Shown one piece after another: positions 10,626 through 54,606 of a stretch of 64,000 bases of DNA. The DNA is from an uncultured Gammaproteobacteria bacterium (GTDB lineage: Bacteria; Patescibacteriota; Microgenomatia; Levybacterales; UBA12049), in NCBI GenBank assembly GCA_965230895.1, contig OZ246394.1, positions 1,441,887 through 1,505,886 on the forward strand, given 5' to 3'. How positions within the stretch are numbered: the stretch's first letter is position 1; the number at the start of each line of letters is the position of its first letter. Under the pieces are notes generated by a model. The model ran no database searches and had not been told where the DNA came from. It worked only from the letters and a program-made list of their open reading frames with translations. Made by a program: the position numbers and the translations under genes.

Positions 10626-10656
10626 CACTGATTCTTTTCACAGGGTCTTTTCTGCC

Positions 10657-11847: not shown

Positions 11848-11885
11848 AAAGTTGTTCAATTACTTTTCATCACCACTTTTCACAG

Positions 11886-11921: not shown

Positions 11922-11956
11922 AGGTCGTACTGCGACTGTAACTATCGAAAGCTAAT

Positions 11957-23161: not shown

Positions 23162-23932
23162 TTATAGTACTAGAATCAAATACGCGATAGCAACACCAAA
23201 GAACATAATTGCGATTGTAACCATACTATTGATGAAGACACTCAAAAGGATAGCTTGTTTTGCAAGTGGATTACGCCCGATTGCTTCAACACCACGATTA
23301 GATGATCGTGCAAAGAATCTAAATCCGAAGAAGAAGGAGAGTAAGGCGATACTTCCTGAGACAACATATCGAACAAAGCCCAATGGTGTTTCCATCGCAG
23401 CCACAAATCCCATTGTTGCTGTATTCCAAAGATTCCTTGTGATATCGTTTGATACTCTTGCGAAATGAGGATGGAGAGTTACTAAAATAGTTCCAACTTT
23501 AGTTTTGTCGTTGTTACTATAATCCTGATCTGCTGTTCCGATAACATAGCCATTGTCGGTAGCTTTTTGTCCAACACCTGGTGTCGTTGATGATGTTATG
23601 AAATCTCCGCGTTGGATATTTCCATTTTGTGAAGAGACTCTCACTCGAACTTGCCCGACACTGATAATTGGAAGGTCGGTTGGAGAAGTTGTATCACTCA
23701 AGTAGACTGCAGGTTTTTTACTGACAACACCAAAGACTTGCGGATCATAGGCTGATGCAGTCTTTTTGTATCCTTCCGATGTAGCACTGATGATATCTCC
23801 GTCCTGAACGTTTTTATCCTCAACCGTAATACCAATTGCAGTACCATTGGAGAGATCGGATGCAAACACAGGGGCAATAGCTGAACCAAACAGCAGGGCA
23901 ATCACTGTAGCAAGAATACTTTTTCTAAGCAT
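23162..23932 (-). CDS. Signal-peptide protein with about 170-aa extracytoplasmic domain and a C-terminal two-helix hairpin resembling an F-type ATPase c subunit (loop RNP in place of RQP; Asn where the ion-binding Asp/Glu is expected)
   Basis: Sits where atpE would be expected (immediately upstream of atpF). The C-terminal GVEAIGRNPLAKQAILLSVFINSMVTIAIMFFGV aligns loosely with the c-subunit loop/helix 2. No acidic residue in helix 2. Assignment tentative. Confidence 0.45.
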   Translation of the reverse strand: MLRKSILATVIALLFGSAIAPVFASDLSNGTAIGITVEDKNVQDGDIISATSEGYKKTASAYDPQVFGVVSKKPAVYLSDTTSPTDLPIISVGQVRVRVSSQNGNIQRGDFITSSTTPGVGQKATDNGYVIGTADQDYSNNDKTKVGTILVTLHPHFARVSNDITRNLWNTATMGFVAAMETPLGFVRYVVSGSIALLSFFFGFRFFARSSNRGVEAIGRNPLAKQAILLSVFINSMVTIAIMFFGVAIAYLILVL

Positions 23933-24034: not shown

Positions 24035-24994
24035 TTATATCCTAGTATATCTTACTGATCTACCTTTGCCTTGAGTAAAGAGCAATCCTAATGAGGTTAA
24101 TTTTGCTAAATCACGTGAAGCAGTAATTTGCGAAATATGGAAAATCTTTTGGACGGTGCGATTTGTGATGACAGTTTTGGGATCATCAAGTAATGTCATT
24201 ATTGTTTTTTGTCGTTCATTAAGTTCTCCAATCTTTTCTTGAACCGGCAATTTTTCAGTTTGGGATAATTGTGAATAAGTAAGCTCAAGACTTTGAGAAA
24301 GAGTCTTTACAAAATACTCAACCCAACTCGTTACATTAGGCTTTGCTACAGCTGTTTGATAATGACCCAGAAAAATCTTATGTTCTTCAGCCCAAGGCTT
24401 TTCTAGAACCATAAGCCCTCGACAATCTATACCACCTCTGTACAAAAAGAGATAACTGCAAAGAGTCGAGAACATATCTGCTTTTATCCCTGGAGGTAAA
24501 AGGCTTCTGTATAAAAGTTTTGCGATTGCACCTTGGACATATGGATTATCTGAACTTACTTGGAGATATGTAGTAATTTCCTGGAGATGTTTTTCGGTTG
24601 TTGCTGATTTTTCTCCACCAATATAATCATATATTTGCATAATGTTTTTTACGTGTACTGGATTAGGGTTTAAAGTCCAATCCCTTTTGATATAGTCAAG
24701 AGACTGTTTGTATCCTAAAACAGTATTTTGTATCAGATCTCTTTTCTGAGGATTTTTTTGCATTGCAAAAACAATTTGATTAGACAAAATTGATTTTATT
24801 TTTTCTCGCAGAACTGGGATTTCTGTTTCTGTTAATCCAAAATAAATGCGGTCCATTGTCGCTGCAAACTGGACGGTCAATTCCTTCTTTGGCTCCATAG
24901 GGTAGAGGATGATTTGTTTGCGTGCCACTTCAGCTTTTTCAAGAAAGCGAAGCATGTATGGTGAGATAGCATAGACGATATCGAGCATAAGCAA
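24035..24994 (-). CDS. Hypothetical cytoplasmic protein with C-terminal winged-helix DNA-binding domain (Fic-family-like architecture, canonical HPFx[DE]GNGR motif not recognisable)
   Basis: 319-aa ORF. C-terminal ITNRTVQKIFHISQITASRDLAKLTSLGLLFTQGKGRSVRY looks like a wHTH. Divergent from giant gene 1. Confidence 0.5.
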   Translation of the reverse strand: MLMLDIVYAISPYMLRFLEKAEVARKQIILYPMEPKKELTVQFAATMDRIYFGLTETEIPVLREKIKSILSNQIVFAMQKNPQKRDLIQNTVLGYKQSLDYIKRDWTLNPNPVHVKNIMQIYDYIGGEKSATTEKHLQEITTYLQVSSDNPYVQGAIAKLLYRSLLPPGIKADMFSTLCSYLFLYRGGIDCRGLMVLEKPWAEEHKIFLGHYQTAVAKPNVTSWVEYFVKTLSQSLELTYSQLSQTEKLPVQEKIGELNERQKTIMTLLDDPKTVITNRTVQKIFHISQITASRDLAKLTSLGLLFTQGKGRSVRYTRI

Positions 24995-25189
24995 AAAGTA
25001 CCAAAATCCACAAAAACCGTCAAGGTATCAGAACATTAAACAATTTTTTGTAAAGTGATATTGTGATATCGATTACATCAGTTGATTTTAAAAGATTTTT
25101 CACGGAGATTTTTGTCCTGCATAGGGACATTTTTTGTTTGCAAAACGACTCAGAAGACAAACTTATCCATTTGAAGCTAGATCAGTAAA

Positions 25190-25270
25190 TAATGATAAGA
25201 TTAAGATAAGATAATACTCAGCCTTGACAAGCCATATTAATATATGTAGTAATAAATATACTGGCAAAAG
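25190..25270 (+). promoter_or_regulatory. Conserved promoter/operator module, copy 1: GATAAGAT direct repeats, -35 TTGACA (25224-25229), invariant 18-mer ATTAATATATGTAGTAAT containing an extended -10-like TGTAGTAAT
   Basis: The same architecture and the identical 18-mer occur upstream of all three giant genes, 89-99 nt from TTGACA to ATG. Confidence 0.65.
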
Positions 25271-25318
25271 TTAAGCAAACCTATCCATTTGTGCGTGAAA
25301 ACTAGCCGGTGCTGCCCA

Positions 25319-28300
25319 ATGAACGAATCACTGCTCACAATACAGGAAGCTGCGAAGCTATTAGGAGTTTCTCCAACAACGCTTCGTCGCTGGGAAGAAC
25401 GAAAGGTTCTTCTTCCGTATCGAACTGCTGGAAACCAGCGAAGATATTCTCGAGAACAGCTTTTAGCCTTCAAAAAGAATGGTTACAGACCAGTCCAAAT
25501 GGCCTCCGTAGCTCCGTCTGATGCTCCAAAGGTGAATGAACCTATCGTTACTCCGATGCATCAAGCACAAGCTTCTGTTGACCAACTCATCACTCCTCAA
25601 TCTCCAGTCCAAACAACAGCTAATCCAATCTTAGTAACGCAGACTCAAAATGAGGCTAATGTCCAAGTTTCTGATATAGTTAGTCAAGCTCAAGAGAGGG
25701 TCGTTTCGGGGTACAAAATGCCATCCCGCTTGCCAAATGTCCGTGAGCTATCTCCAATGGCGGGTGTATTTGCTGCGCTTGTCGTCTTCGTTGGATTTGT
25801 CCTTGCAGCATCGTTAGCTCCTACATGGGGTGAAGATTTAGATAGGCTTGGTAAAGGATTCCCAAGAGATGGAGCAAGCGCTCAGCAAGTTCTGGCTGCA
25901 AATGACAATACGCCTTTATTTGTTTTGAAAGTTAATGTTCCGAGTGTCTTTGGAAAGAAAGCTTCATTCCTCGATAGCGTCGATATTAGCAAAGGCTTAA
26001 CCGTGGGAGGCGTTGCTACGATGAGTGGCGGGATCATTACCAACAATGCTGACATCAATGCTGGAACTGGTCGGTTAACTGCATCAAACGTAGTCTATTC
26101 AGTACTCGCAGGCAATAATATCTCGATTACTGGTGACCCTCAAAATCCTACCATTTCAGCTGACTTCGGTGGAGGAGTAGTGAGTTCATTCCAAGGGCAA
26201 AGTGGAGCGGTTTCTTTGCTTCAAGGCTCGGGAATTGGACTTGATGGTTTGACGATCACAAACACAGGCGTACTTTCCGTTCAAGGTCAATCCGGTGCAG
26301 TTAATTTCACTGGAGGAGCAGGAATTACGCTCAATAATCTTACTATAACAAACAGTGATCCAGGTTCAGCTCAAAAGATCTTCAGTACGTTCAACATAGA
26401 TGGCACTCCTGTGGCTGCTAGCTCTAATACTGATACCTTCAATTTCGCTGCTGGAAGCGGAATTACGCTCAGTACAAATACTACAGACAAAATTTTGACT
26501 ATCTCGGCGAACGGAGGAGCCACAAGTCAATGGACAACTACAGGATCAGATATATATTATAACTTGGGTAATGTAGGCATAGGAAATTCAGCTCCAGGTA
26601 CAACGTTGGATGTCACTGGAGATGGAAGGTTTTCTGGTACGCTTACCGTCTCAGGCTTAAGTACAGGAATTGTCAAAGCAGATGGATCAGGATTACTCTC
26701 AACAAGCGCATTGAATCTAGCTGGAGGAGCTTCAGAAATAACTGGAGTTTTGCCTGTAGCAAATGGAGGTACAGGTTTATCTTCAATTCCTACAAATGGT
26801 CAACTTCTTATAGGTAATGGAACTGACTACACATTGGGCAACCTAACAGGCACAGTCAATCAGATTACTATAAGCAATGGTGCTGGCTCAATTACTTTTT
26901 CAACTCCTCAAGATATTCATACTGCAGCCTCACCAACGTTTGCAACTATGAACTTAACCAACAGCACAAACCAGCTTGTATTTGGAACTGGAACAACTGG
27001 CACGATCAGTATGGATCCATTAACCACAAATCGTACCTATACATTCCCGGATGCAAGTGGAACTGTTTGTTTAACTTCGGGAAATTGTAGTGGTGGAGGT
27101 GGTGGAGGTATATCGGGTGCTGGGACAACGAACTATATCGCCAAGTTCACCAGCTCGAGCGGTATATCGGATTCTTCGATTTACGATAATGGAAAAGTTG
27201 GTATAGGAACTACAAGCCCGGAAGGGCTTTTAACTGTTTCTGGGGGACCTGCTGGCAAGGCTCTTGCAGTGTTTAATTACACTGGGTCAGGACAAAATAT
27301 TTTGACTGCTTCAGCCTCTGGAACCACAAGACTTACAATCAACAGTTCCGGGGACCTAAATATCATCGGTGGTGCGTATCAAATTAATGGCACTTCAGTT
27401 TTAACTAGTAACACGCTTGGTTCAGGGATAGTCAATTCTTCACTTACTTCAGTTGGTGCACTTGACTCAGGTTCAATCACTGCAGGTTTTGGCAACATTA
27501 ACGTGGGTATGGACAGTATCAGTGGAGGCGATATAACTTCAGTTGGTCCTGTAGGATTTGTCTCAACAGGAAATGGTGCAGGCTTATCGTTCTCAGGTAC
27601 TGGAAACCACGACATAACAGCATCTTCAGGTGTGCTTCGATTAGGCGCTGTGACATTAACTGGTGCGCTTACTGGGAATGGCCAAAATGTCACAGGCTTA
27701 AATAATCTTTCTGCTGGAGGTACCGTAACCTTTGGTGGGCTTGGAACGGGTATCGTTCAAAGTAATGGTTCAGGAGTACTTTCAAGTGGTGCTTTGAACT
27801 TGGCTGGAGGAGCTTCCTACGTAACTGGAGTTCTCCCTGTGACAAATGGTGGTACAGGATTGAATTCATTCAATACAGGGGACCTTATCTTTGCCTCTGC
27901 AAGTAATACATTGGCTGCATTGCCAATCGGTACTGAAGGCCAGGTCCTTGCTGTTTCTGGAGCGGGAACTCCTACATGGATTTCTACCGGAACACTTAAT
28001 TATTGGCAGCGAGCAAACGGTGCACTTGCTCCATTAAATATCTCTGATGATCTTCTTGTAGGGGGTGTCTCAACAGCTTCCGCGAAATTTCAGATCTTTG
28101 GAATCTCAGGTAATGCATCAACTTCCGGAACCTTCACGTTTAATACTGCAGGCGTGATTCAAAGTACCAATAACCATGGTATTACAATTGGAGGTTCGAC
28201 AACAGGAAATATTACCTTGTCTCCACAAAATGGTTCTGGGACAGTCACTTCAACAGGGAATCTTAATCTTCTTTCGGGTAAGGTATATCAGATTAATGGA

Positions 28301-31300
28301 TCAAATGTCTTAACCTCATCAACACTTGGTTCTAGTGTCACTGCATCTTCATTGACATCGGTTGGTACATTGACTGGTGGTTCAATTGCCTCAGGATTTG
28401 GTACTATCGCTACTGCCAACACCATCACTGGTACAACGTTGAATGGCACAACTGGGATCAATACAGGTGCAGGTGGTGGAACGCAAAGAATTGACACTTC
28501 TGGTAACCTTACAAATATCGGAACAACCCAATTGAATGGCATCACTTATACATGGCCAGGTTCAGCGGGAGGAAGCAACAATGTTCTAACTTCTGATGGC
28601 AGTGGTGGTTTGAGTTGGAATGATGTAACTACATTACCAGGCGTAGGTGATATAACAGCAATTGGAGATGTTCTTTCTGGCCCTGCATTCACTGCTGGTG
28701 GTACGCAAGGAACCTCTTTGTACTTCTATGATGCAGATGGACGGGGACAACTTACTATAGCGAACCTAACTGCTGCTCGAACATATACATTACCTGATGC
28801 TTCCGGCACAATCTGCCTTGATTCTGGGAACTGTGCAGGATCAGGTGGTGGGATTGTTGGTACAGGTACAGCGGGTCAATTAGCTTTCTTTAATGGTACA
28901 GGTACAATAACATCTGAGACTTCAGGCTTTGCATGGGATGCAACAAATAAAAAGCTTGGCATTGGTACGGATACTCCAACAGGCAAGCTTACAGTTTCTG
29001 GTGCAGCTGCTGGGAAAGCGTTAGCTATATTTGATGAGCTTGGTGATCAGGACATATTCTCAGCTTCAGCTTCAGGAATTACACAATTGAGATTAGCTCG
29101 AAATGGTGACTTGGCAATTGAAGGAATGCTTTCTGATCTTACGCAAAATGCATTAACAGTGAATGACAACTTGAATTTAGTCTCAGGCAACGCATTCCAG
29201 ATAAATGGCACAAATGTTTTGAGCTCATCGACACTTGGCTCAGGGGTTGTTAGCTCCTCATTGACTTCCGTTGGAGCTCTTTCATCGGGTTCAATTGCAA
29301 ATGGGTTTGGCAGTATCTTTACTTCAAATACTATTCAAGGTAGTGACATCACTGCTTCTGGAACAACAGGATTTACTGCTTCCGGCAATGGTGCTGGTTT
29401 AACCTTCTCAGGCACGGGTAATCATAGCATAAGTGCATCATCCGGAACCCTCCAGATCGGAGCCGCGACGTTGACTGGTGACTTAACTGGTAACAGCCAA
29501 AGTATCGTCGGAGTAAACAATTTGTCTGCGAGTGGCACAATTACTTTTGGAGGTTTGTCGACAGGGATTGTAAAGAGTAACGGCTCTGGTATCCTTTCTT
29601 CAAGCGCAGTCAACCTAGCTTCAGGTGATATCACTGGTACGCTTGGAGTTGCAAATGGTGGTACAGGTATAACTTCAGTTGGTGGTGCTGGTGGAGTAGC
29701 TTACTCCAATGGATCAACCTTTGCCTTCACAGCAGCAGGATTAAGTGGTCAGGTGTTAGTTTCAAATGGTACAGGCGCACCTTCATGGACTGACCCATCA
29801 ACGCTCGGAACAAATTATTGGCAACGAAATTCAGGTTTGCTTGCACCTCTTAATATAGCTGATGATTTGGCTGTTGGTGGATCAAGTACAGGATCAGCGA
29901 AGTTCCAGATCTTTGGCGGGACAGGTAATGCTTCAACTTCAGGTACGCTAACGTTCAATACTGCAGGCACTATCCAGACAACCAATAATCAAACCTTAAC
30001 CTTCGGAGGCGCGAGTACCGGCAATATCGTCTTCTCACCATTAAATGGTGCGGGTACTGTATTAGTTAATGGTAGTATGAATCTTTCTTCAGGTAATACA
30101 TATCAGATTAATGGAACAACTGTGTTATCTGCAACAACTCTTGGGACGGGAGTTGTCAATTCTTCGCTTACAAATGTCGGAATTTTGACTGGAGGCTCTA
30201 TTGCTTCCGGATTTGGAACAATCGCTACTGCCAATACAATTACCGGTACTACTATAAATGGAACGACTGGAATTAATACCGGTGCAGGAGCTGGTACACA
30301 ACGAATTACTAATAATGGTAATTTGGTTAATATCGGAACAACCCAATTAAATGGTGTAACGTATACCTGGCCAAGTGCAGATGGATCATCTGATTATGTG
30401 CTGACAACTGACAGCAGTGGTGGATTAACATGGAAGAATGTAACATCTGTCGGTGGAGCAGGTGATATAACAGCGATTGGAGATGTCACTTCAGGAGCGG
30501 CATTTACAGCTGCTGGTACACAAGGAACCTCTTTGTATTTCTATGATACAGATGGACGTGGTCAAGTAACCATTGCAAACCTCACAGCGCCTCGAACATA
30601 CACATTGCCTGATGCTTCCGGCACCGTTTGTCTCGATTCCGGTAACTGTGCTGGATCTGGTGGTGGTTTGACGGGAAGTGGAACTGCGGGACAAGTTGCA
30701 TTCTTCAATGGGACTGGTACTTTGACATCTGAAACATCAGGATTTGCTTGGGATGCAACAAATAAGAAGCTTGGTATTGGTACAAATACTCCAACCGGTA
30801 AATTGACGGTTTCTGGAGGTGCGACAGGAAAAGCACTTGCAGTCTTCGATGAAACAGGTGATCAGGATATCATTACTGCGTCTGCGTCAGGTACAACACA
30901 GTTTGTTCTTAACCGAAATGGTAATCTCGCAATTGAAGGTCAGCTTTCCGATCTCTCTCAGAATACACTTACTGTTAATGACAATTTGAACCTCACAACC
31001 GGAAATGAGTTCCAAATCAACAGCGCAAGCATCTTGAGTGCTTCAACTCTTGGTTCAAGTGTCATCAATTCATCTTTGACGTCAGTTGGAGCTTTGACGA
31101 GTGGCTCTATTGCTTCAGGCTTTGGTACTATATTAACAACTAATACCATCCAGGGTTCAGATATTACCGCATCAGGAGCTACAGGGTTTACCGCTTCTGG
31201 TAATGGAGCTGGATTGACGTTCTCAGGCACGGGTAATCATATCGTAAGTGCATCATCTGGAACACTCCAATTTGGTGCAGCCACATTGACTGGTGCAATC

Positions 31301-34300
31301 ACTGGAAATGGCCAAAATGTCACTGGCTTGAACAATCTTTCAGCTGGTGGAACGATCACATTTGGTGGACTTTCTACAGGAGTCGTCAAGAGCAACGGTT
31401 CAGGCGTTCTTTCATCAAGTGCGATTGGCTTAAATACAGGCGATGTTACGGGAACACTTCCAGTTGGCAATGGTGGAACTGGCCAAACAAGCTTCACAAC
31501 CAACGGAGTAGTATATGGTAATGGTTCAAGTGCGTTGTCCGTAACATCCGCACCAACTGGTGGACAAGTACTTCTCGGGAACAACTCCGGAGTTCCAACA
31601 TTCACCACTATTTCAGGTGGTGTAACTATTAGTAATACTGGTGTTGCAACGATTGCATTATCATCTTCAGGCGATACCGGTAATACAAGTTCAAACTCAG
31701 GATTGGAATTCAATACAACTGATGGATTATCACTCCTTAGAGGTTGTGCAAATGACGAAATCCTTAAATGGAATGATTCCTCAAAGACATGGGTATGTGC
31801 GACTGATGCTGGTGGTTCTGGATCTGCTGGTACTATTAATGTTCAGAATAATGAAGTTGGGATTGGATCCAATGTCGATACAATTGACTTTGGTACAGAC
31901 TTTACTGTCGCAGCATCTCCATCAAATGAAGCAAATGTCTCAATCGCTGATGATGTCTTGGATTTCTCAGAATTCATCGACAACATGACATTGGATGCAA
32001 ATACAAGCATTGCTACAGCGAACTTTAACTTAACACTCGGAACAAACGCTGGGACAGGCGGAGTCGTTGTTTCTCCAAATGCAGGTGGTAATGCAGCCTT
32101 GATCGTTAACAAGCAGGGAACAGGTGATATCTTCACGGCTTCTGCTTCAGGTACAACCCGATTGACCTTGAGCAATTCTGGTAACTTAAATATTGTTGGT
32201 GGTAGTTATCAAATTGGTGGTACAAATGTTTTGAGTAGTAGCACCCTTGGATCAGGTGTCATAGCTTCTTCTTTGACAAGTGTTGGGGCATTGAACTCCG
32301 GTTCAATAACTTCAGGCTTTGGAGCAATTGATACAGGAACTGATGCTATCTCTGGTGGAGACATCACTGCAACTGGAACGACTGGCTTTACCGCTTCTGG
32401 TAACGGCGCAGGTCTCACATTCTCAGGAACAGGTAACCATTCAATTTCAGCTTCAGCTGGAACCTTGCAGTTGGGCGCAACCACATTGACCGGAGCAATC
32501 ACAGGAAATGGTCAAAATGTTACAGGTTTGAACAATTTCTCAGCTGGCGGAACGGTAACCTTTGGAGGATTTACAACCGATGGCGGCTTACTCTACACAA
32601 ATGGTTCAGGCGTTCTCGCTCAGACATCTGCGGGGACAGGCGGACAATGTTTGGTCTCCAACGGTGGTGGCGCACCAACATGGGGAGCATGTGCTGGTGG
32701 TTTGGCTAATTATTGGAATTTAGCAAATGGTGTTATTACACCACAGAATTCAACTGTTGATTTCTTAATTGGTGGCCAAGCTACAAGTTCAGCAAAGTTC
32801 GCTGTCTTAAATGTTAATTCAGGAACACCAACAGCATCTGTCTCAGCTGGAGCGACAGGTGGTCTTTCAATCGCAGCAGATGGCACAATTGGCACAACAA
32901 ATCGACAATCATTAACTCTTGGTAACAGTTCAACAGGTAATATCGTCTTGAATGGATTTGGAGCTGGTATCGTTAAGACCACTGCTTCAGGTGTACTCTC
33001 AAGTTCAGCACTTAATTTAGCTTCAGCAGAAGTTACTGGTACACTTGGTGTCGGCAATGGTGGAACTGGCCAAACAAGCTTCACAACAAATGGCGTTGTC
33101 TACGGAAATGGTTCAAGTGCGTTGTCTGTAACCTCTGCGCCAACTGGCGGCCAAATCTTGATGGGCAATAACTCTGGAGTTCCTACATTCACAACCGTTT
33201 CAGGTGGCCTTACCTTGAGTGATACAGGCGTTGCTTCAATTGTCTTAACTTCATCAAACGATACTGCGAACACGAGCTCTAATTCAGGACTGGAGTTCAG
33301 TACAGCAAATGGCTTGTCATTGCTTCGGGGATGCAACAATGGCCAGATCTTGAAATGGAATGAAACTTCAAAGCTTTGGGAATGTGGTTCTGACGCTGGT
33401 GGAACCGGTGGCCCTGCAGGTGTTGTCAATGTTGAGAACAATGACTCAGGTGTTGGTACAGATGTTGATACCATTGATTTCAGTTCAGATTTCTTGGTCA
33501 CAGCATCTCCATCAACAGAAGCAAATGTTTCAATTGCTGATGATGTTATTGACTTCACAGAACTTGCTGATAGCTTGAGCCTTGATGCTGCAACACAAAT
33601 TGCCTTAAATAACTTCAACCTCACACTCGGAACAAACGCTGGTACAGGTGGAGTTATTGTTGCTCCAAATGCTGGCGGCAATGCTGCATTAATCATCAAC
33701 AAGCAGGGGACAGGCGACATCTTTACAGCTTCAGCTTCAGGTACCACTCGATTGGCTTTGACAAATAGTGGAGACTTGAACATCATCGGTGGCGCATATC
33801 AGATTGGTGGTACAAGTGTCTTGAGTAGTAACACGCTTGGTTCAGGTGTAGTTAATTCATCTTTGACAAGTGTTGGTGCATTGAACTCCGGTTCAATAAC
33901 TTCAGGCTTTGGAGCAATTGATACAGGTACAGATAATATCTCCGGAGGCAATCTCACTGCTACAGGAACGACTGGTTTCATCGCTTCAGGCAATGGTGCA
34001 GGTTTGACATTCTCAGGCACAGGCAATCATGACATCACAGCATCTGGTGGTACACTCCGATTGGGTGCAGCGACATTGACTGGGGCAATCACAGGAAACG
34101 GTCAAAATGTCACTGGTATTGCGAACCTGGGTGCAACCGGAACTGTAACCTTTGGCAGCTTCACAACAGATGGTGGTTTGCTCTACACAAATGGTTCAGG
34201 CGTAGTCGCACAAACTGCACAAGGCACAGCTGGTCAATGTCTTCTCTCAAATGCAGGTGGCGCACCAACATGGGGTTCATGTACTGGCGGCTTAGCTAAT

Positions 34301-37300
34301 TATTGGAACCAAAATAACGGTGCATTGTCTGCAATGAATTCTACCGTTGATTTGCTTGTCGGTGGACAATCATCCGCTTCAGCAAAGTTTGCTGTCTTGA
34401 ATGTTAACTCAGGAACACCAACAGCATCTGTATCAGCTGGAGCAACTGGTGGTATCTCAATTGCAGCGGATGGAACAATCGGTACAACAGCCCGCCAATC
34501 ACTTACACTTGGCAATAGCACCACAGGCAACATTGTCTTAAATGGATTTGGAGCTGGCATAGTGAAGACCAGTGCTTCAGGCGTTCTTTCATCAAGTGCG
34601 ATCGGTTTGAATACAGCGGATGTCACTGGTACCTTGCCAGTTGGTAATGGTGGTACTGGAGCAACATCGTTTACAGCCGGTGGTGTCCTTTATGGAAATG
34701 GTTCAAGTGCAGTAGCAGCTTCTTCTCAAGGAACAGCTGGCCAAGCATTACTCTCCGGCGGTACTGGCGCACCAACATGGACAACTGGGACACTTTCACT
34801 CGCTGGTAATTTCACAACGGCAGGTGCAAATGCTTTGACACTTACCACAACTGGCGCAACAAATGTCACGCTTCCAACCACCGGAACGCTTGCCACATTG
34901 GCTGGTACTGAGACGCTCAGTGGTAAGACACTCACTGCTCCACGAATTGCAAATGGTGGATTCATCGCTGACGCCAATGGTAATGAACAATTGATCTTCA
35001 ATACAACAGCATCAGCAATCAACGAATTAACGCTCACCAATGCAGCGGCAAGTGGTGTCGTTACCCTCGCTGCAACAGGCGGTGACACTAATATTCCATT
35101 TGCAATCGATGCAAAGGGGACGGGAGAACTTAGATTGAATGGAACCGGAACTGGTAACATATTGCTTGGTGGTGGATTCGGATCAACAGGTTGTACGCTT
35201 ACAAATTCATCTGGAGCATTTGCATGTAACGGCGCAATCACAGGTTCAAATATCTCTGGTTCAACTTCAGGAACCAACACTGGTGATCAGACAATTACCT
35301 TGACTGGTGATGTCACGGGAAGTGGTACAGGTTCATTTGCGACAACAATCGCGGACAATTCAGTCGATGGTACAGATATTGCACTAGGCTCAGATACTGC
35401 GGGTGATTTAATGTACTACAACGGAACTGATTGGGTCCGATTAGCTGCAGGTACTGGAAACCAAGTGTTGCATTCCGGTTCAACACCATCTTGGGGTGCA
35501 CTTGATTTGACGACTCAAGTGACAGGAACTCTTCCAATTGCCAATGGCGGTACAAATTCAACTGCGACACCAACCAATGGTGGTATCGCATATGGTACTG
35601 GCACAGCATTTGCCTTTACTTCTGCCGGAACCGGTGGACAATGTCTCCAATCAAATGGAGCCGCTGCACCGACATGGGGAACTTGTACAGGAGGATTGGC
35701 TAACTACTGGAATCTCTCAAATGGTACTTTGGCCCCAGTAAATACAACACTTGATCTTTTGGTAGGTGGGACAAGTTCATCTTCAGCGAAATTTGCAGTT
35801 TTGAATGTTAATTCAGGAACACCAACAGCGTCAGTCTCAGCTGGTTCAGCTGGCGCAGCATACTTAACAGCAGCTGGTGCATTGCAAACGACTGCAAATC
35901 AAACACTCTCTCTTGGTGGTAACACAACTGGCAACATAGTCTTGAATGGTGATGGCAGTGATCGAGTCGGTGTTGGTGTTTCAACTCCAGTTGCTATGTT
36001 TAATATTGGTGAATACTCAGATTCTGTTGTTTCTCTTGCTCTTGGAAACGATGCAAATGCAGCTAATTATGGTTTAGCTGCGTTCAATAATAACTTAAAG
36101 CTTGTTGCTCCTTCAGGATTTAGATTTATGACAGGCACACCAGGTGGAACTGAAGTAATGACTATCACTGGAGGTAATTTGGGTGTTGGAGTAACTTCTC
36201 CAACCGCAAAGCTTGATGTTAACGGAGCAGCATCCGTCTCAGGTTCATTAACCTTCCGAACTGGAGCAGGCACAATTCAAACGACTGCAAATAACACATT
36301 AACGCTTGGTGGTAATACAACAGGAAACATCGTCTTCAACCCATTGAACGGAGCAGGCACAGTCCGAATCACATCGTTGGCTAACTGTAACACGATTGAT
36401 ACTGACGCAAATGGTGTTCTCTCCTGTGGAACTGATGAGAGTGGTGGAGTTCAGAACTACTGGAATCTTTCAAATGGAGCACTCTCTCCAGTCAATAGTA
36501 CCGCTGATCTTTTAGTTGGTGGGGCAGCTTCATCATCAGCAAAGTTTGCAGTTCTGAATGTGAACTCAGGTACACCAACAGCATCTGTATCAGCTGGTTC
36601 AGCAGGCGGTGCATCATTAACAGCAACCGGTGTCCTGGGGACAACAGCGCGCCAATCCTTAACGTTGGGTAACAGTACAACCGGTAACATCGTCTTGAAT
36701 GGATTCACGACTGGCGTGGTAAAGAGCAATGCTTCAGGCGTTCTTTCATCAAGTGCAATCGGTTTGAATACAGCGGATGTCACTGGTACCTTGCCAGTTG
36801 GTAATGGTGGTACTGGAGCAACATCGTTTACAGCCGGTGGTGTCCTTTATGGAAATGGTTCAAGTGCAGTAGCAGCTTCAACACAAGGTACAAGTGGGCA
36901 AGTGCTTCTTTCCGGAGGGACAGGCGCTCCAACATGGACAACTGGTACATTGACCTTGGCGGGCAATTTCAGTACATCAGGTGCAAATGCATTGACGCTT
37001 ACAACAACAGGTGCAACTAATGTGACTTTGCCTACAACTGGTACATTGGCAACGCTTGCTGGTACAGAAACACTCAGTGGTAAGACACTCACAGCGCCAC
37101 GATTTGTAAATGGTGGATTCATCGCTGATGCCAATGGCAATGAACAATTAATCTTTAATACGACAGCATCAGCAATCAATGAATTGACGTTAACGAATGC
37201 CGCTGCTAGTGGAGTTGTCACTTTGGCAGCAACAGGTGGAGACACCAACATTCCATTCGCAATTGATGCAAAGGGGACGGGAGAACTCCGATTGAATGGA

Positions 37301-39358
37301 ACAGGAACCGGTAATATCTTGCTTGGTGGTGGATTCGGCTCAACAGGGTGTACGCTTACAAATTCATCTGGAGCATTTGCATGTAATGGAGCGATCACAG
37401 GTTCAAACATTTCTGGTTCAACTTCTGGAACAAATACTGGCGACCAGACGATCACGTTAACAGGAGACGTTACTGGATCAGGCACAGGATCTTTTGGTAC
37501 AACCATTGCAGATAATGCTGTTGATGGTACAGACATCTCACTTGCTTCTGAGGCACAAGGCAATATCATGTACTTCGATGGAACTGATTGGGTACGATTG
37601 GCAAATGGTACAGGCAATCAAGTGCTTCACTCCGGTACAACTCCATCATGGGGAGCAGTGGATCTCACAACTCAAGTTACTGGGACACTTCCAATCGCAA
37701 ATGGTGGTACAAATTCAACAGCAACTCCAACCAATGGCGGAATCGCTTATGGAACTGGAACTGCATTTGCATTCACAAGTGCAGGAAGCGGTGGACAATG
37801 TCTCCAATCAAATGGAGCAGCAGCTCCAACATGGGGATCATGTGGCGGTGGTATTTCAAATTACTGGAATATCAACCAAGGCACAATTGCTCCTGTAAAT
37901 ACAACACTCGACTTGTTGGTTGGTGGCACAAGTTCATCATCAGCGAAGTTTGCAGTATTGGGCATAAATTCAGGCACACCAACAGCATCTGTTTCAGCAA
38001 CAGCTTCAGGCAATGGACTCTCACTTGGTGGCGATGCAGTGATCCAGTCACTTCGAAATAACACATTAACTATCGGTGGAAATACGACTGGCAACATCAC
38101 ATTGTCACCTTTGAATGGAAGTGGTACAGTCACTTCAACTGGCGATCTTAACCTCGCTACTGGTAAAGTATTCCAGATTAATGGAGCATCAGTTCTCTCA
38201 TCAACAACCCTTGGTACAAGTGTCGTATCATCATCTCTTACAACAGTTGGAGCTTTGAATGCAGGTTCAATTACATCCGGATTTGGAGCAATTGATGTCG
38301 GCTCAGATAACATTGCTGGAGGAGACATCACTGCAAGTGGAACTACTGGTTACATCGCTTCAGGCAACGGTGCTGGCTTAAACTTCTCAGGAGCAAGTAC
38401 CCATACAATTCAAGCGTCAGCAGGTACATTGCAGATCAACGCTTTCACCATGGGTGGAGCAATTACAGGGGGAGGAAATAACATCACTGGCCTTGGGCAG
38501 CTTACTGTTGATAACTTAAGACTTGATGGAAACACATTAGATACAACTTCTGGTGATCTTACAATTGCAGCAAGTGGTGGTGATATCATCTTCTCAGATA
38601 CAAATACACTTAATATTGGTGGCAATGTTTCAGACGTTGCATACAATATCATTGGCGACACTATCTCAGGTGCAAATGGAAATATGAATTCAGACGATGA
38701 TTTGTTCGTCGAAGGAGATTTGCAAGTTGCTGGTACACTCTTTGCGAATGTCACAACAGGTTTGGCTGCAAATTCACTCGTCTTCACTGGAACCAATGGT
38801 GTGCTTTCTGTTGATAGCTCTAACTTCTCAGTGAATAACACAACCAAGAGAATTGGTATTGGTACAAATTCACCTTTGGCATCGCTTGATGTTCGAGCAA
38901 CTTCTGGTACTGTGCCAGCAGCATCAGTTTCAGGTACAACTGCAATGGCAGCAATGATCGTCGATAATAATGGTGTAGGTGATCTCTTCACAGCAAGTAA
39001 GTCTGGTGCAACGAAGTTCGTAGTCACAAATGCAGGGAGAGTTGGTATTGGGACAGGGACACCATCAACGACTGCATTACTTGATGTTGAAGGACAGATT
39101 CAATCAAGTGAATTACAACTGACATCAGGAGGAGTAATCGGATGGAATTATTACAATAATGGACTTGATCGATACCTCGCAACAGGAGAAGCATTCCAAT
39201 GGTGGCAGAATGGAGCAAACCTTAACCTTATGTCAGCAGGGAGTGGAGCAGCAAACAGTCAGATCGTCTTCAAGACAGCAATGACTATCAATGCAAGCGG
39301 CAATGTCGTCGTAAACAATGATGGTAACGCACAGGATTTCCAGGTTAAAAGGAGATAA
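25319..39358 (+). CDS. Giant surface protein 1, part 1: N-terminal MerR-type HTH, one TM helix, about 4,500 aa of nested tandem G/T/S/N-rich repeats. The ORF-track start at 25289 is a TTG; the ATG at 25319 matches the start context of paralog 2.
   Basis: LTIQEAAKLLGVSPTTLRRWEERKVLLPYRTAGNQRRYSREQL fits the MerR HTH pattern (TLRxWE..G.L.P.R...G.R.Y). TM LSPMAGVFAALVVFVGFVLAASLAP. Long uninterrupted frame. Paralogous to 45391.. and 54607.. Confidence 0.85.
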   Translation: MNESLLTIQEAAKLLGVSPTTLRRWEERKVLLPYRTAGNQRRYSREQLLAFKKNGYRPVQMASVAPSDAPKVNEPIVTPMHQAQASVDQLITPQSPVQTTANPILVTQTQNEANVQVSDIVSQAQERVVSGYKMPSRLPNVRELSPMAGVFAALVVFVGFVLAASLAPTWGEDLDRLGKGFPRDGASAQQVLAANDNTPLFVLKVNVPSVFGKKASFLDSVDISKGLTVGGVATMSGGIITNNADINAGTGRLTASNVVYSVLAGNNISITGDPQNPTISADFGGGVVSSFQGQSGAVSLLQGSGIGLDGLTITNTGVLSVQGQSGAVNFTGGAGITLNNLTITNSDPGSAQKIFSTFNIDGTPVAASSNTDTFNFAAGSGITLSTNTTDKILTISANGGATSQWTTTGSDIYYNLGNVGIGNSAPGTTLDVTGDGRFSGTLTVSGLSTGIVKADGSGLLSTSALNLAGGASEITGVLPVANGGTGLSSIPTNGQLLIGNGTDYTLGNLTGTVNQITISNGAGSITFSTPQDIHTAASPTFATMNLTNSTNQLVFGTGTTGTISMDPLTTNRTYTFPDASGTVCLTSGNCSGGGGGGISGAGTTNYIAKFTSSSGISDSSIYDNGKVGIGTTSPEGLLTVSGGPAGKALAVFNYTGSGQNILTASASGTTRLTINSSGDLNIIGGAYQINGTSVLTSNTLGSGIVNSSLTSVGALDSGSITAGFGNINVGMDSISGGDITSVGPVGFVSTGNGAGLSFSGTGNHDITASSGVLRLGAVTLTGALTGNGQNVTGLNNLSAGGTVTFGGLGTGIVQSNGSGVLSSGALNLAGGASYVTGVLPVTNGGTGLNSFNTGDLIFASASNTLAALPIGTEGQVLAVSGAGTPTWISTGTLNYWQRANGALAPLNISDDLLVGGVSTASAKFQIFGISGNASTSGTFTFNTAGVIQSTNNHGITIGGSTTGNITLSPQNGSGTVTSTGNLNLLSGKVYQINGSNVLTSSTLGSSVTASSLTSVGTLTGGSIASGFGTIATANTITGTTLNGTTGINTGAGGGTQRIDTSGNLTNIGTTQLNGITYTWPGSAGGSNNVLTSDGSGGLSWNDVTTLPGVGDITAIGDVLSGPAFTAGGTQGTSLYFYDADGRGQLTIANLTAARTYTLPDASGTICLDSGNCAGSGGGIVGTGTAGQLAFFNGTGTITSETSGFAWDATNKKLGIGTDTPTGKLTVSGAAAGKALAIFDELGDQDIFSASASGITQLRLARNGDLAIEGMLSDLTQNALTVNDNLNLVSGNAFQINGTNVLSSSTLGSGVVSSSLTSVGALSSGSIANGFGSIFTSNTIQGSDITASGTTGFTASGNGAGLTFSGTGNHSISASSGTLQIGAATLTGDLTGNSQSIVGVNNLSASGTITFGGLSTGIVKSNGSGILSSSAVNLASGDITGTLGVANGGTGITSVGGAGGVAYSNGSTFAFTAAGLSGQVLVSNGTGAPSWTDPSTLGTNYWQRNSGLLAPLNIADDLAVGGSSTGSAKFQIFGGTGNASTSGTLTFNTAGTIQTTNNQTLTFGGASTGNIVFSPLNGAGTVLVNGSMNLSSGNTYQINGTTVLSATTLGTGVVNSSLTNVGILTGGSIASGFGTIATANTITGTTINGTTGINTGAGAGTQRITNNGNLVNIGTTQLNGVTYTWPSADGSSDYVLTTDSSGGLTWKNVTSVGGAGDITAIGDVTSGAAFTAAGTQGTSLYFYDTDGRGQVTIANLTAPRTYTLPDASGTVCLDSGNCAGSGGGLTGSGTAGQVAFFNGTGTLTSETSGFAWDATNKKLGIGTNTPTGKLTVSGGATGKALAVFDETGDQDIITASASGTTQFVLNRNGNLAIEGQLSDLSQNTLTVNDNLNLTTGNEFQINSASILSASTLGSSVINSSLTSVGALTSGSIASGFGTILTTNTIQGSDITASGATGFTASGNGAGLTFSGTGNHIVSASSGTLQFGAATLTGAITGNGQNVTGLNNLSAGGTITFGGLSTGVVKSNGSGVLSSSAIGLNTGDVTGTLPVGNGGTGQTSFTTNGVVYGNGSSALSVTSAPTGGQVLLGNNSGVPTFTTISGGVTISNTGVATIALSSSGDTGNTSSNSGLEFNTTDGLSLLRGCANDEILKWNDSSKTWVCATDAGGSGSAGTINVQNNEVGIGSNVDTIDFGTDFTVAASPSNEANVSIADDVLDFSEFIDNMTLDANTSIATANFNLTLGTNAGTGGVVVSPNAGGNAALIVNKQGTGDIFTASASGTTRLTLSNSGNLNIVGGSYQIGGTNVLSSSTLGSGVIASSLTSVGALNSGSITSGFGAIDTGTDAISGGDITATGTTGFTASGNGAGLTFSGTGNHSISASAGTLQLGATTLTGAITGNGQNVTGLNNFSAGGTVTFGGFTTDGGLLYTNGSGVLAQTSAGTGGQCLVSNGGGAPTWGACAGGLANYWNLANGVITPQNSTVDFLIGGQATSSAKFAVLNVNSGTPTASVSAGATGGLSIAADGTIGTTNRQSLTLGNSSTGNIVLNGFGAGIVKTTASGVLSSSALNLASAEVTGTLGVGNGGTGQTSFTTNGVVYGNGSSALSVTSAPTGGQILMGNNSGVPTFTTVSGGLTLSDTGVASIVLTSSNDTANTSSNSGLEFSTANGLSLLRGCNNGQILKWNETSKLWECGSDAGGTGGPAGVVNVENNDSGVGTDVDTIDFSSDFLVTASPSTEANVSIADDVIDFTELADSLSLDAATQIALNNFNLTLGTNAGTGGVIVAPNAGGNAALIINKQGTGDIFTASASGTTRLALTNSGDLNIIGGAYQIGGTSVLSSNTLGSGVVNSSLTSVGALNSGSITSGFGAIDTGTDNISGGNLTATGTTGFIASGNGAGLTFSGTGNHDITASGGTLRLGAATLTGAITGNGQNVTGIANLGATGTVTFGSFTTDGGLLYTNGSGVVAQTAQGTAGQCLLSNAGGAPTWGSCTGGLANYWNQNNGALSAMNSTVDLLVGGQSSASAKFAVLNVNSGTPTASVSAGATGGISIAADGTIGTTARQSLTLGNSTTGNIVLNGFGAGIVKTSASGVLSSSAIGLNTADVTGTLPVGNGGTGATSFTAGGVLYGNGSSAVAASSQGTAGQALLSGGTGAPTWTTGTLSLAGNFTTAGANALTLTTTGATNVTLPTTGTLATLAGTETLSGKTLTAPRIANGGFIADANGNEQLIFNTTASAINELTLTNAAASGVVTLAATGGDTNIPFAIDAKGTGELRLNGTGTGNILLGGGFGSTGCTLTNSSGAFACNGAITGSNISGSTSGTNTGDQTITLTGDVTGSGTGSFATTIADNSVDGTDIALGSDTAGDLMYYNGTDWVRLAAGTGNQVLHSGSTPSWGALDLTTQVTGTLPIANGGTNSTATPTNGGIAYGTGTAFAFTSAGTGGQCLQSNGAAAPTWGTCTGGLANYWNLSNGTLAPVNTTLDLLVGGTSSSSAKFAVLNVNSGTPTASVSAGSAGAAYLTAAGALQTTANQTLSLGGNTTGNIVLNGDGSDRVGVGVSTPVAMFNIGEYSDSVVSLALGNDANAANYGLAAFNNNLKLVAPSGFRFMTGTPGGTEVMTITGGNLGVGVTSPTAKLDVNGAASVSGSLTFRTGAGTIQTTANNTLTLGGNTTGNIVFNPLNGAGTVRITSLANCNTIDTDANGVLSCGTDESGGVQNYWNLSNGALSPVNSTADLLVGGAASSSAKFAVLNVNSGTPTASVSAGSAGGASLTATGVLGTTARQSLTLGNSTTGNIVLNGFTTGVVKSNASGVLSSSAIGLNTADVTGTLPVGNGGTGATSFTAGGVLYGNGSSAVAASTQGTSGQVLLSGGTGAPTWTTGTLTLAGNFSTSGANALTLTTTGATNVTLPTTGTLATLAGTETLSGKTLTAPRFVNGGFIADANGNEQLIFNTTASAINELTLTNAAASGVVTLAATGGDTNIPFAIDAKGTGELRLNGTGTGNILLGGGFGSTGCTLTNSSGAFACNGAITGSNISGSTSGTNTGDQTITLTGDVTGSGTGSFGTTIADNAVDGTDISLASEAQGNIMYFDGTDWVRLANGTGNQVLHSGTTPSWGAVDLTTQVTGTLPIANGGTNSTATPTNGGIAYGTGTAFAFTSAGSGGQCLQSNGAAAPTWGSCGGGISNYWNINQGTIAPVNTTLDLLVGGTSSSSAKFAVLGINSGTPTASVSATASGNGLSLGGDAVIQSLRNNTLTIGGNTTGNITLSPLNGSGTVTSTGDLNLATGKVFQINGASVLSSTTLGTSVVSSSLTTVGALNAGSITSGFGAIDVGSDNIAGGDITASGTTGYIASGNGAGLNFSGASTHTIQASAGTLQINAFTMGGAITGGGNNITGLGQLTVDNLRLDGNTLDTTSGDLTIAASGGDIIFSDTNTLNIGGNVSDVAYNIIGDTISGANGNMNSDDDLFVEGDLQVAGTLFANVTTGLAANSLVFTGTNGVLSVDSSNFSVNNTTKRIGIGTNSPLASLDVRATSGTVPAASVSGTTAMAAMIVDNNGVGDLFTASKSGATKFVVTNAGRVGIGTGTPSTTALLDVEGQIQSSELQLTSGGVIGWNYYNNGLDRYLATGEAFQWWQNGANLNLMSAGSGAANSQIVFKTAMTINASGNVVVNNDGNAQDFQVKRR
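25328..25480 (+). other. MerR-type helix-turn-helix domain at the cytoplasmic N-terminus of giant protein 1 (equivalents at about 45400-45550 and about 54616-54760)
   Basis: TIQEAAKLLGVSPTTLRRWEERKVLLPYRTAGNQRRYSREQLL fits the MerR/HTH_17 pattern. Conserved in all three paralogs and immediately followed by about 100 aa of linker and one TM helix. Confidence 0.7.
34589..35840 (+). repeat. Near-identical 1.25-kb segment, copy A (pairs with 36746..37995; offset 2157 nt, 719 codons)
   Basis: Long runs of identical nucleotides, e.g. tcatcaagtgc.atcggtttgaatacagcggatgtcactggtaccttgccagttggtaatggtggtactggagcaacatcgtttacagccggtggtgtcctttatggaaatggttcaagtgcagtagcagcttc in both copies. Confidence 0.85.
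36746..37995 (+). repeat. Near-identical 1.25-kb segment, copy B
   Basis: See copy A. Protein identity is above 95% over about 415 aa. Confidence 0.85.
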
Positions 39359-45254: not shown

Positions 45255-45340
45255 AAATGATGATAAGTATATGATAAGATTATTCTCATCCTTGACAGCC
45301 TTATTAATATATGTAGTAATTATATTATGTGAAAATATTG
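45255..45340 (+). promoter_or_regulatory. Conserved promoter/operator module, copy 2 (TTGACA 45292-45297; 18-mer 45303-45320)
   Basis: Sequence identity to copy 1 and copy 3. Upstream GATAAGTATATGATAAGAT repeats. Confidence 0.65.
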
Positions 45341-45390
45341 GACAAAGTGTGACAAAGTCTAGTATTTGAGCTCAAATTCATTACTGCCCA

Positions 45391-54486: not shown

Positions 54487-54575
54487 TTGATGAGATTAAG
54501 ATAAGATTAATTTGTGCTTGACAGGCTTAATTAATATATGTAGTAATATATATACTAGCAAAAGTTGGACATTAG
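54487..54575 (+). promoter_or_regulatory. Conserved promoter/operator module, copy 3 (TTGACA 54518-54523; 18-mer 54530-54547)
   Basis: Sequence identity to copies 1 and 2. Upstream GAGATTAAGATAAGATTA repeats. Confidence 0.65.
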
Positions 54576-54606
54576 GCAGGGTGTCCAAGTTCCTAGAAGA
54601 CCTGCC

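Follow-up and report, generated by a model that had tools for sequence, protein, structure and literature searches.

Why should three giant genes within one stretch of DNA carry an identical 18-nucleotide (nt) sequence in their upstream regions? This question is raised by contig OZ246394.1 (assembly GCA_965230895.1), of which one stretch of 64,000 nt was analysed as a whole; this stretch is referred to as the window, and all coordinates are positions within it. The genes belong to a family of giant type-II membrane proteins in Levybacteria/Microgenomates, members of the Candidate Phyla Radiation (CPR). Giant surface proteins are considered central to the attached, symbiotic CPR lifestyle, and to our knowledge next to nothing is known about how transcription is controlled in CPR/Patescibacteria. 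The answer that we favour, with a probability of about 0.55, is that the 18-mer represents the downstream spacer and −10 region of a cassette dedicated to this family, namely an off-consensus promoter that would depend on, or be gated by, a sequence-specific protein.

The 18-mer (ATTAATATATGTAGTAAT) occurred exactly three times in the window, always on the + strand, and a window scan allowing three mismatches returned no further match. By chance, 0.04 occurrences would be expected in the window, and at least three matches were found in 0 of 100 shuffles. Each copy was preceded by a perfect TTGACA across an unconserved linker of 6, 5 and 6 nt (agccat, gcctt and ggctta in copies 1, 2 and 3, respectively), and the distance from the start of TTGACA to the ATG was 95, 99 and 89 nt (ATGs at 25319, 45391 and 54607). 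In an alignment, the three upstream regions had a mean identity of 69%, with an island of identity spanning the −35 to the −10. These observations matched in every detail the first-pass annotation of this DNA, which had described three modules of TTGACA, 5–6 nt and the identical 18-mer with the ATG 89–99 nt downstream. The A/T block and subsequent conserved GCAAAAGTT that it had described in copies 1 and 3 were likewise recovered, the latter as CTGGCAAAAGTT in copy 1 and CTAGCAAAAGTT in copy 3. The elements of the three copies are as follows.

25194..25215, + strand: copy 1, 11-base-pair (bp) direct repeats GATAAGATTAA and GATAAGATAAT, ending 8 nt 5′ of the −35
25224..25229, + strand: copy 1, −35 TTGACA
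25236..25253, + strand: copy 1, 18-mer, made up of the 3′ spacer portion, TRTG motif and −10 region
25250..25255, + strand: copy 1, −10 candidate TAATAA in the long-spacer register (N20)
25245–25253, + strand: copy 1, alternative −10 register TG-T-AGTAAT (N18)
25256..25318, + strand: copy 1, leader with CTGGCAAAAGTT, then CTGCCCA (25312–25318) abutting the ATG; no Shine-Dalgarno sequence
45262..45283, + strand: copy 2, upstream direct repeats GATAAGTATAT and GATAAGATTAT
45292..45297, + strand: copy 2, −35 TTGACA
45303..45320, + strand: copy 2, 18-mer, with TAATTA at 45317–45322, 19 nt past the −35
45323..45390, + strand: copy 2, leader with TTGGACA (45338–45344), palindrome TTTGAGCTCAAA (45365–45376) and CTGCCCA (45384–45390)
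54489..54510, + strand: copy 3, upstream direct repeats GATGAGATTAA and GATAAGATTAA
54518..54523, + strand: copy 3, −35 TTGACA
54530..54547, + strand: copy 3, 18-mer, with TAATAT at 54544–54549, 20 nt past the −35
54550..54606, + strand: copy 3, leader with hairpin AAGTTGGACA / TGTCCAAGTT (54562–54591), loop GGCAGG (54575–54580) and CCTGCC (54601–54606) abutting the ATG

Outside the window, a scan for exact copies of the 18-mer in one genome per species returned 74 genomic loci. TTGACA lay 5–6 nt 5′ of the 18-mer at 15 of these loci on 12 contigs, which were labelled as Levyibacteriota or came from metagenome-assembled genomes with other, probably unreliable, taxon labels. All 15 were followed, 43–140 nt downstream, by a gene of >250 to >1900 amino acids (aa) with the same helix-turn-helix (HTH) signature (M..LLTIQEAA..TLRRW..GNQRRY). 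None of the remaining 59 genomic matches, which were isolated and lay in A/T-rich genomes, had the TTGACA context, nor did any of 22 matches in viral contigs. A generic or low-complexity element, which the first-pass annotation had proposed to recognise by a wide spread of the 18-mer in unrelated intergenic DNA, was thereby ruled out: TTGACA-linked copies were found only 5′ of homologous family genes (15/15), and chance copies lacked this context.

One contig (CAZDOJ010000003.1), from a close relative of the window, carried all three copies, and the three orthologous pairs were 93–100% identical over the module and 23–60% identical in the intergenic DNA further upstream. The 5–6-nt linker between TTGACA and the 18-mer differed in almost every genome. 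Because linkers and flanks vary while the 18-mer does not, its identity was attributed to selection rather than to recent duplication. Recent duplication or gene conversion was ruled out as the cause, since orthologues from at least 10 other genomes retain the 18-mer while their linkers, flanks and paralogue-specific leaders diverge. The free variation of linker and flanks between species, set against a fixed 18-mer, also bore out the earlier claim that its conservation exceeds what a core promoter needs. Collectively, these sequence comparisons support the view that the module is a promoter-type element specific to the giant-gene family and conserved far beyond neutral drift.

Since the genome scan detects exact copies only, a second search was anchored on the protein. 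An alignment of the 55-residue HTH, searched against metagenome contigs, yielded 499 relatives, of which 80 were kept, representing 77 unique loci. TTGACA was present upstream in 65/77 of these loci, TTGACA-N19/20-TAxTAx in 54, at least two TTRGACA/TGTCYAA motifs in 52, CTGYC adjoining the ATG in 51 and at least two GATAAGATT-like units in 31. The exact 18-mer was found in five loci and forms with one or two mismatches in three; the other loci with a module carried other spacer variants, which differ in the first six positions of the 18-mer (variant a, ATTAAT, as in the window; variant b, TCACAT; variant c, YGTGAA or GTGAAA). The family-wide part is the last 12 nt of the 18-mer, and the first 6 nt are lineage-dependent. 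Conservation upstream of TAAT was A87 n A85 T91 R T90 G90 T83 M G80 (%), giving the core AnATRTGTMGTAAT, which aligns with the last 14 nt of the window 18-mer.

The flanking elements were also fixed in position among 71 unique promoters: GATAAGATT-like units at −30 to −11 relative to TTGACA (83 matches), TTRGACA at +30 to +59, its inverted form TGTCYAA at +60 to +79 and CTGYCC at +80 to +99. Across 520 kb of related DNA, 50 occurrences of the core fell at family promoters and one elsewhere; for tandem GATWWGATT the counts were 43 versus five, and for tandem TTRGACA 22 versus four. Read from 5′ to 3′, the cassette often begins with two GATAAGATT direct repeats (11-bp period), and continues with 7–8 nt, TTGACA, the free 5–6-nt linker, the lineage hexamer (ATTAAT here), the family-wide ATRTGTMGTAAT, an A/T block, TTRGACA repeats with an inverted copy, and CTGCC before the ATG. 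As a separate observation in the window, a decayed copy of the 18-mer region (75% identity) was found at 54099–54126, 427 nt upstream of copy 3.

Two registers can be read for the −10. In the first, TTGACA-N17/18-MGTAAT preceded by TRTG-n, the spacing is canonical and the −11 position is occupied by G (80% conserved) instead of A. TRTG-n is the Gram-positive type of extended −10, and sigma70 requires A at −11. In the second, TTGACA-N19/20-TAATWW, TA occupies −12/−11, the spacer exceeds the norm by 2–3 bp and −7 is mostly A. The first register is backed by the 90% conservation of TRTG, and the second by relatives whose sole good hexamer lies at N19 (TACTAT in L075 and L118, TATAAT in L141). TAAT started at N19 in 30 and at N20 in 16 of 56 promoters (46/56 at N19/20). 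The lineage norm was taken from 117 candidate leaderless promoters of the same lineages, in which the −35 spacing peaked at 17 nt (nine cases vs. approximately one at other spacings); the set of all TTGACA sites and that of all near-consensus intergenic pairs were too noisy for this purpose. In the window itself, a clear Shine-Dalgarno sequence was found in only 2/27 genes and many had TAnnnT 5–8 nt 5′ of the ATG (e.g., those at 5876, 8137, 8879, 16834 and 23157), so the mRNAs of many genes here are probably leaderless. The giant genes, with leaders of 60–70 nt, are exceptions to this pattern.

A consensus promoter scan called a + strand site in none of the three copies. The promoter proposed earlier was well supported, as a sequence-based prediction, by the anatomy and conservation of the module, and the accompanying argument from a long spacer was strengthened, given that TAAT lies 19–20 nt past TTGACA across the family versus the lineage peak of 17 nt. 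This pattern suggested that the promoter is off-consensus by design and would need help or gating. A sigma54-like TGGCA-N10-GCA in copy 1 was also considered and was dropped, as it is absent from copies 2 and 3.

One possibility is that there is no dedicated operator and that the 18-mer is read by RNA polymerase only, as an extended −10/−10 and, back to back with it, a TATATT belonging to a divergent or antisense promoter; two overlapping promoters would then freeze the sequence. The TRTG-n-nnTAAT arrangement at N17/18, 80–90% conserved, fits an extended −10. Furthermore, the consensus scan found canonical minus-strand sites with the −10 inside the 18-mer in all three copies, namely the following site in copy 1 and TTCACA-N16 and TTGCTA-N17, each with −10 TATATT, in copies 2 and 3, respectively.

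25239..25267, − strand: copy 1, antisense sigma70-like site TTGCCA-N17-TATATT, whose −10 is the reverse complement of 18-mer positions 4–9

Among 21 unique modules with the exact 18-mer, the antisense −35 matched at least 4/6 positions in 17, versus 15% expected, and a divergent upstream open reading frame (ORF) was present at 55/68 family promoters. The antisense site may add to the conservation of the 5′ half of the 18-mer in this lineage. However, at copies 2 and 3 no gene lies on the minus strand that such a promoter could drive, and the antisense −10 is missing from spacer variants b and c, which are themselves conserved. This reading leaves positions 1–3 of the 18-mer and the conserved G that would fall at −11 unexplained, and the antisense −35 overlaps the conserved GGACAA leader motif and may be a by-product of it. 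We regard a role for RNA polymerase alone as possible but unlikely.

If a dedicated protein is involved, the giant proteins themselves offer the first candidate, as seen from the architecture of their genes.

25319..39358, + strand: giant gene 1, 4679 aa, with a BldC-like winged helix at aa 5–54 (25331–25480), a disordered linker, a transmembrane helix at aa 147–165 (25757–25813) and a giant extracytoplasmic part
45391..53958, + strand: giant gene 2, 2855 aa, with a BldC-like HTH, a transmembrane helix and Kelch repeats at aa 1885–2072
54607..64000, + strand: giant gene 3, >3131 aa, continuing past the window end, with the same architecture as genes 1 and 2

All three products start with a MerR/HTH_17 domain at residues 5–54 (Pfam matches MerR, MerR_1 and HTH_17). 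It is followed by a stretch of approximately 90 residues rich in Pro/Gln/Ala, basic residues and a single hydrophobic helix, past which lie a conserved module (VLAA...NVPS.F...LTASNV.YS..AG) and then thousands of residues. Other Pfam matches were almost nil, except for the Kelch repeats of gene 2. In the AlphaFold model, the predicted local distance difference test (pLDDT) score was 84–97 for residues 1–55 and approximately 49 for residues 56–145, and a confident helix spanned residues 147–165. One short helix (45–54) follows the wing, and disorder then extends to the transmembrane helix, with no coiled-coil dimerisation helix. This HTH–disorder–helix layout indicated that the giant proteins are type-II membrane proteins with a cytoplasmic DNA-binding-type domain and a giant external part.

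The best sequence match of the HTH profile was BldC (6AMK and 6AMA, E = 2.6e-12), and the top Foldseek matches of the N-terminal domain were also BldC, with a root-mean-square deviation of 1.6–2.1 Å, 34–39% identity and target-normalised TM-scores of 0.71–0.81. R24 is invariant and aligned with the base-contacting Arg30 of BldC, and K/R20 aligned with Lys26; the position of BldC His46 is Gln in most family members and His in L039. All lineages have the same recognition helix, STKTLRRW, whichever spacer variant they carry. Database homologues were titled ‘MerR family DNA-binding transcriptional regulator, partial’ and came from Levybacteria, Shapirobacteria or Patescibacteria, and a literature search found no paper on the giant-protein family or the promoter cassette. 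Some relatives depart from the common architecture: the family variant L127 has its HTH domain twice in tandem, L147 and L152 consist of an HTH and a transmembrane helix in a short protein of 130–225 aa (L147 without a cassette), and L135, in which the HTH is fused to a serine recombinase, represents a different family.

The first-pass annotation had suggested a MerR-style mechanism on the 18-mer. In its classical form, the giant proteins' own domains would dimerise on a dyad operator in the long spacer, i.e., the 18-mer, and untwist the DNA to align the −35 and −10. The Pfam assignments, the family-wide spacer of 19–20 nt in the TAAT register versus the lineage norm of 17 and the self-complementarity of the 18-mer (7/9) are in line with this model. 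Nevertheless, the AlphaFold model lacks the dimerisation helix, and the closest relative, BldC, forms head-to-tail multimers on direct repeats. Within the spacer, the 18-mer dyad lies off-centre, and the partial palindromes, of the kind expected of A/T-alternating sequence, are differently centred in spacer variants a, b and c; there is thus no consistent dyad operator. With neither a dimerisation helix nor a consistent dyad, and with BldC as the best match, the classical form was unsupported, and we consider it improbable. That the proteins' own MerR-type domain binds the 18-mer is a plausible hypothesis. BldC itself, a MerR-like winged-helix protein lacking a dimerisation helix, binds AATTnnnnC direct repeats head-to-tail and distorts DNA, as at the whiI site, which has a 9-bp period and contains AATC (PMC5859096), and it can act as a repressor or an activator (PMC5859096; PMC6428758).

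A second candidate DNA-binding protein, with a catalytically dead Fic fold (pseudo-Fic), is encoded divergently to giant gene 1.

24035..24988, − strand: pseudo-Fic protein gene, 317 aa, with a C-terminal winged helix; divergent to giant gene 1 and the first gene toward the ATP synthase operon
24995..25023, − strand: candidate own promoter of the pseudo-Fic gene, TTGACG-N17-TACTTT, 6 nt before the ATG and of the leaderless type; weak by consensus and missed by the promoter scan

The model of this protein (pLDDT 87) confirmed a Fic fold with a winged helix and matched SoFic, Coxiella Fic2 and FICD in Foldseek (E = 3e-8 to 1e-3); the top matches, SoFic and Coxiella Fic2, also carry a C-terminal winged helix. 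PF02661 was detected on some homologues, and the catalytic motif HxFx(D/E)GNGRxxR was absent from both the window protein and the family consensus. The protein had 317 database homologues, a few of which were named Fic or DeoR regulator. In the corresponding explanation, this protein would be the regulator, binding the intergenic region common to both genes, at the GATAAGATT units and perhaps in the spacer, and controlling its own gene or the atp-side operon together with the giant-gene copies in trans.

Several observations argue for such a role. Full-length homologues (29–93% identity) lie divergently upstream of a family gene in 41 loci, covering all spacer variants, and their winged helix is nearly invariant (ISQITASRDL...GKGRSVRYT, with ISQITASRDL invariant). 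One wing residue tracks the spacer variant: R accompanies ATTAAT, also in the distant L039, and Y accompanies TCACAT/YGTGAA, L091 being the single exception. At least two GATAAGATT units were present in 34/39 loci with the pseudo-Fic gene versus 6/32 without it (Fisher p = 7e-9, a comparison confounded by phylogeny). In the b and c lineages, the pseudo-Fic gene has its own TTGACT/TTGCTA-N17 promoter with a GATAAGATT unit in the spacer in 27/39 loci. A single regulator acting on three identical sites would also simply explain an 18-mer common to the paralogues.

On the other hand, the proximal promoter of the window pseudo-Fic gene lacks a GATAAGATT unit, and the core AnATRTGTMGTAAT persists at loci without an adjacent pseudo-Fic gene (L090, L107, L121, L123, L134, L150 and L153). 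Distant homologues sit in other gene arrangements. The adjacency is part of a larger conserved block including the ATP synthase operon, so it may be plain gene-order conservation; the downstream genes encoding 256-aa and 237-aa proteins are divergent neighbours of family genes in approximately 60 and 40 loci, respectively, some of them without the Fic gene. Overall, the pseudo-Fic protein is a serious candidate regulator, at least as far as the repeats are concerned, and the main alternative to the BldC-like domain, although we consider regulation by it unlikely. Within the same block, the 256-aa protein (23162–23932, −) comprises a signal peptide, a domain sharing 32% identity with part of giant gene 2 (52762–53151, +) and, at its C-terminus, a hairpin similar to ATP synthase subunit c; this protein and the 237-aa b-like protein are encoded at the head of the ATPase operon.

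The leader between the −10 and the ATG raised the further possibility that the conserved element acts after transcription or in DNA rearrangement, as a structured or processive-antitermination leader for transcripts of 9–14 kb or as a recombination site between paralogues. The leaders contain TTRGACA direct repeats and then an inverted copy (TGTCYAA), and these conserved inverted repeats form hairpins in single-sequence folds. The hairpin arms are essentially the conserved 7-mer; flanking positions were complementary in 17/27 cases, versus approximately 45% expected, and the R/Y position of the arms showed nine G-U and six A-C combinations. As both combinations occur, an RNA hairpin and a set of protein sites are indistinguishable in the leader. 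In the copy-3 subgroup (window, L009, L018 and L049), the loop GGCAGG can pair with CCUGCC abutting the AUG in 4/4 sequences in a pseudoknot-like manner, in one member through two G-U changes and with no double compensations.

However, these elements lie downstream of the 18-mer, which is itself A/U-rich and unstructured, and a search of the three leaders against the Rfam 15 covariance models gave no match at gathering thresholds or even at E ≤ 1. With regard to recombination, the paralogue-specific leaders are kept between species with no sign of gene conversion, and the three copies have no common flanking inverted repeats. We hold an RNA-level or recombination role for the 18-mer to be very improbable. 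An invertible promoter was ruled out, as no inverted repeat is common to the three copies, and a small upstream ORF starting at ATGGACA was dropped, being unconserved across family members.

Some further motifs were observed around the leaders and promoters. A leader-like motif is repeated approximately 115 nt upstream and flanks each promoter; the two occurrences run in the same direction at copies 1 and 3 and in opposite directions at copy 2, as in the following pairs.

25158–25173 / 25276–25291: flanking leader-like motif pair, copy 1
45226–45239 / 45322–45335: flanking leader-like motif pair, copy 2
54446–54459 / 54560–54573: flanking leader-like motif pair, copy 3

In the divergent intergenic region of copy 1, a terminator-like hairpin (TGTCCTGCATAGGGACA) with a T run is located at 25113–25139 (+); it is built from the leader TGTCC/GGACA motif, and there is no upstream + strand gene that would need a terminator. 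In addition, a TTTTCAC/GTGAAAA motif recurs beside promoters (8701–8878, 10577–10656, 11848–11956, 25095–25105, 45225–45235, 45326–45335 and 54375–54390) and lies, in either orientation, inside the giant-gene spacer of related lineages (spacer variants b and c). This motif may be the site of another factor.

We thus return to the reading favoured at the outset, in which the 18-mer belongs to an off-consensus promoter cassette controlled by a sequence-specific protein. The anatomy of the cassette, its conservation and exclusivity to the family, the anomalous spacing and the folds of both candidate proteins are direct observations. From them we infer the transcription start, the dependence on a factor and the assignment of proteins to sites. 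The proposed protein would be bound over the spacer/−10 and/or the flanking repeats, and the promoter would not be free-running. The first-ranked candidate binder would be the membrane-tethered BldC-like domain of the giant proteins, with auto-regulation and cross-regulation of the three paralogues through the identical site; for the GATAAGATT repeats, the pseudo-Fic/winged-helix protein would be the likelier binder. The paired GATAAGATT units and the paired TTRGACA motifs would be candidate direct repeats for head-to-tail binding of the BldC type. On the bottom strand, the sequence of the upstream repeats is AATCTTATC-tt-AATCTTATC, and the positions varying between relatives fall in the nnnn part of the AATTnnnnC rule of BldC, with which the repeats are consistent.

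Several points weigh against this reading. The likeness of AATCTTATC to a BldC site was recognised post hoc, and the period is 11 bp rather than the 9 bp of the BldC whiI site. The −10 register is ambiguous between N17/18 and N19/20, and the canonical antisense promoter sites in all three copies could explain the conservation of 18-mer positions 4–9. The BldC-like domain alone cannot explain the lineage-specific first 6 nt, because its recognition helix is invariant across lineages. For the same reason, if this domain is the binder, it should read TTGACA, the core, TTRGACA or the repeats rather than the lineage hexamer. Finally, as the GATAAGATT repeats track the pseudo-Fic gene, they point to the pseudo-Fic protein over the BldC-like domain.

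A more speculative version of binding by the BldC-like domain would operate in cis. The nascent domain is the first part out of the ribosome, with RNA polymerase still within a few hundred bp of the promoter, and could bind the cassette of its own gene while being tethered to the membrane during transcription, translation and export of the 9–14-kb gene; the identical 18-mer would then be a common docking site. Although we consider this a long shot, it would, if true, provide a one-template, one-nascent-chain feedback that blocks or paces re-initiation, and, within an ultra-small cell, would keep the gene fixed at the membrane so that secretion could proceed during transcription.

The gene content of the window (LeuRS, ComEA/ComEC, ArgRS, an F-type ATPase operon and dockerin proteins) is that of a small-genome chromosome segment. 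The two genes encoding dockerin-domain proteins (10591–10656 and 11886–11956, +) have TTGACA-N20-TACTAA/TACTAG promoters with a shared spacer motif, TTCAAAATT, and the first of them also has the CTGCC-ATG start context. As these promoters have N20 spacing, the long-spacer design may extend to other exported proteins. A 597-aa ORF behind giant gene 1 begins 41 nt before the stop of this gene (39318–39358); given this overlap and the lack of a cassette, it is probably co-transcribed with giant gene 1. A separate TTGCAA-N17-TAGTAT site is present for the M23 peptidase/LamG gene at 41246.

Together, these results describe a sharply defined, family-exclusive cis-element conserved across species and two candidate DNA-binding proteins, which can be tested in vitro without culture. 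Should the BldC-like domain be the binder, the BldC family and the class of transmembrane regulators would be extended to giant structural proteins reporting their own abundance. Should the pseudo-Fic protein bind, a dead Fic enzyme would have been recruited as a transcription factor. In either case, the off-register promoter (19–20 nt vs. the 17-nt lineage norm) would exemplify a promoter that is constructed so as to require assistance.

Among known systems, the promoters of the MerR family (merT, copA, zntA and bmr) have a 19–20-bp spacer with the dyad operator inside. The cassette resembles them in its consensus −35, in a −10 at 19–20 nt in one register, in its conserved spacer sequence and in that the regulated gene encodes a MerR-type HTH. 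In contrast, the cassette has no consistent dyad, the domain has no dimerisation helix, and a second register offers the canonical 17–18 nt with TRTG. The variable surface-protein families of Mycoplasma (vsp/vlp) have conserved 5′ cassettes, and here too each of several surface-protein paralogues has an almost identical upstream block together with a conserved N-terminus. Unlike in vsp/vlp, the cassettes showed no invertible element or recombinase site and no homopolymer or long repeat tract, and the leaders are paralogue-specific and stable between species.

Divergent regulator/target pairs with a shared control region are known from LysR-type and MerR-type operons. Giant gene 1 is similarly placed back to back with a winged-helix gene, and the repeat unit occurs in both promoters in many lineages; the differences are that the candidate regulator has a catalytically dead Fic fold and that the conserved ATP synthase block alone could explain the adjacency. 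BldC of Streptomyces (6AMA and 6AMK) is the closest counterpart of the N-terminal domain in both sequence and fold, being a winged helix without a coiled-coil or effector domain and having the same base-contacting Arg, and the cassette contains A/T-rich direct repeats with G/C four base pairs away. Whereas BldC is a free cytoplasmic protein of 68 residues, the domain described here is the N-terminus of a membrane protein of 2,800–4,700 aa, and its binding to the cassette is a candidate interaction predicted from sequence, with a repeat period of 11 bp versus 9 bp for BldC.

The overall layout recalls the membrane-bound one-component regulators of the ToxR, TcpP and CadC class (PMC10269533), in which an N-terminal cytoplasmic DNA-binding domain, a single transmembrane helix and an extracytoplasmic C-terminal part are likewise combined in one polypeptide. 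The known members use OmpR-type and other domains, and their sensors comprise a few hundred residues, in contrast to a surface protein of several thousand residues, whose regulatory role is putative and deduced from domain architecture. From these comparisons, we would rate the cassette and the BldC-like domain as probable variants of two known designs, the factor-dependent long-spacer promoter and the membrane-tethered regulator.

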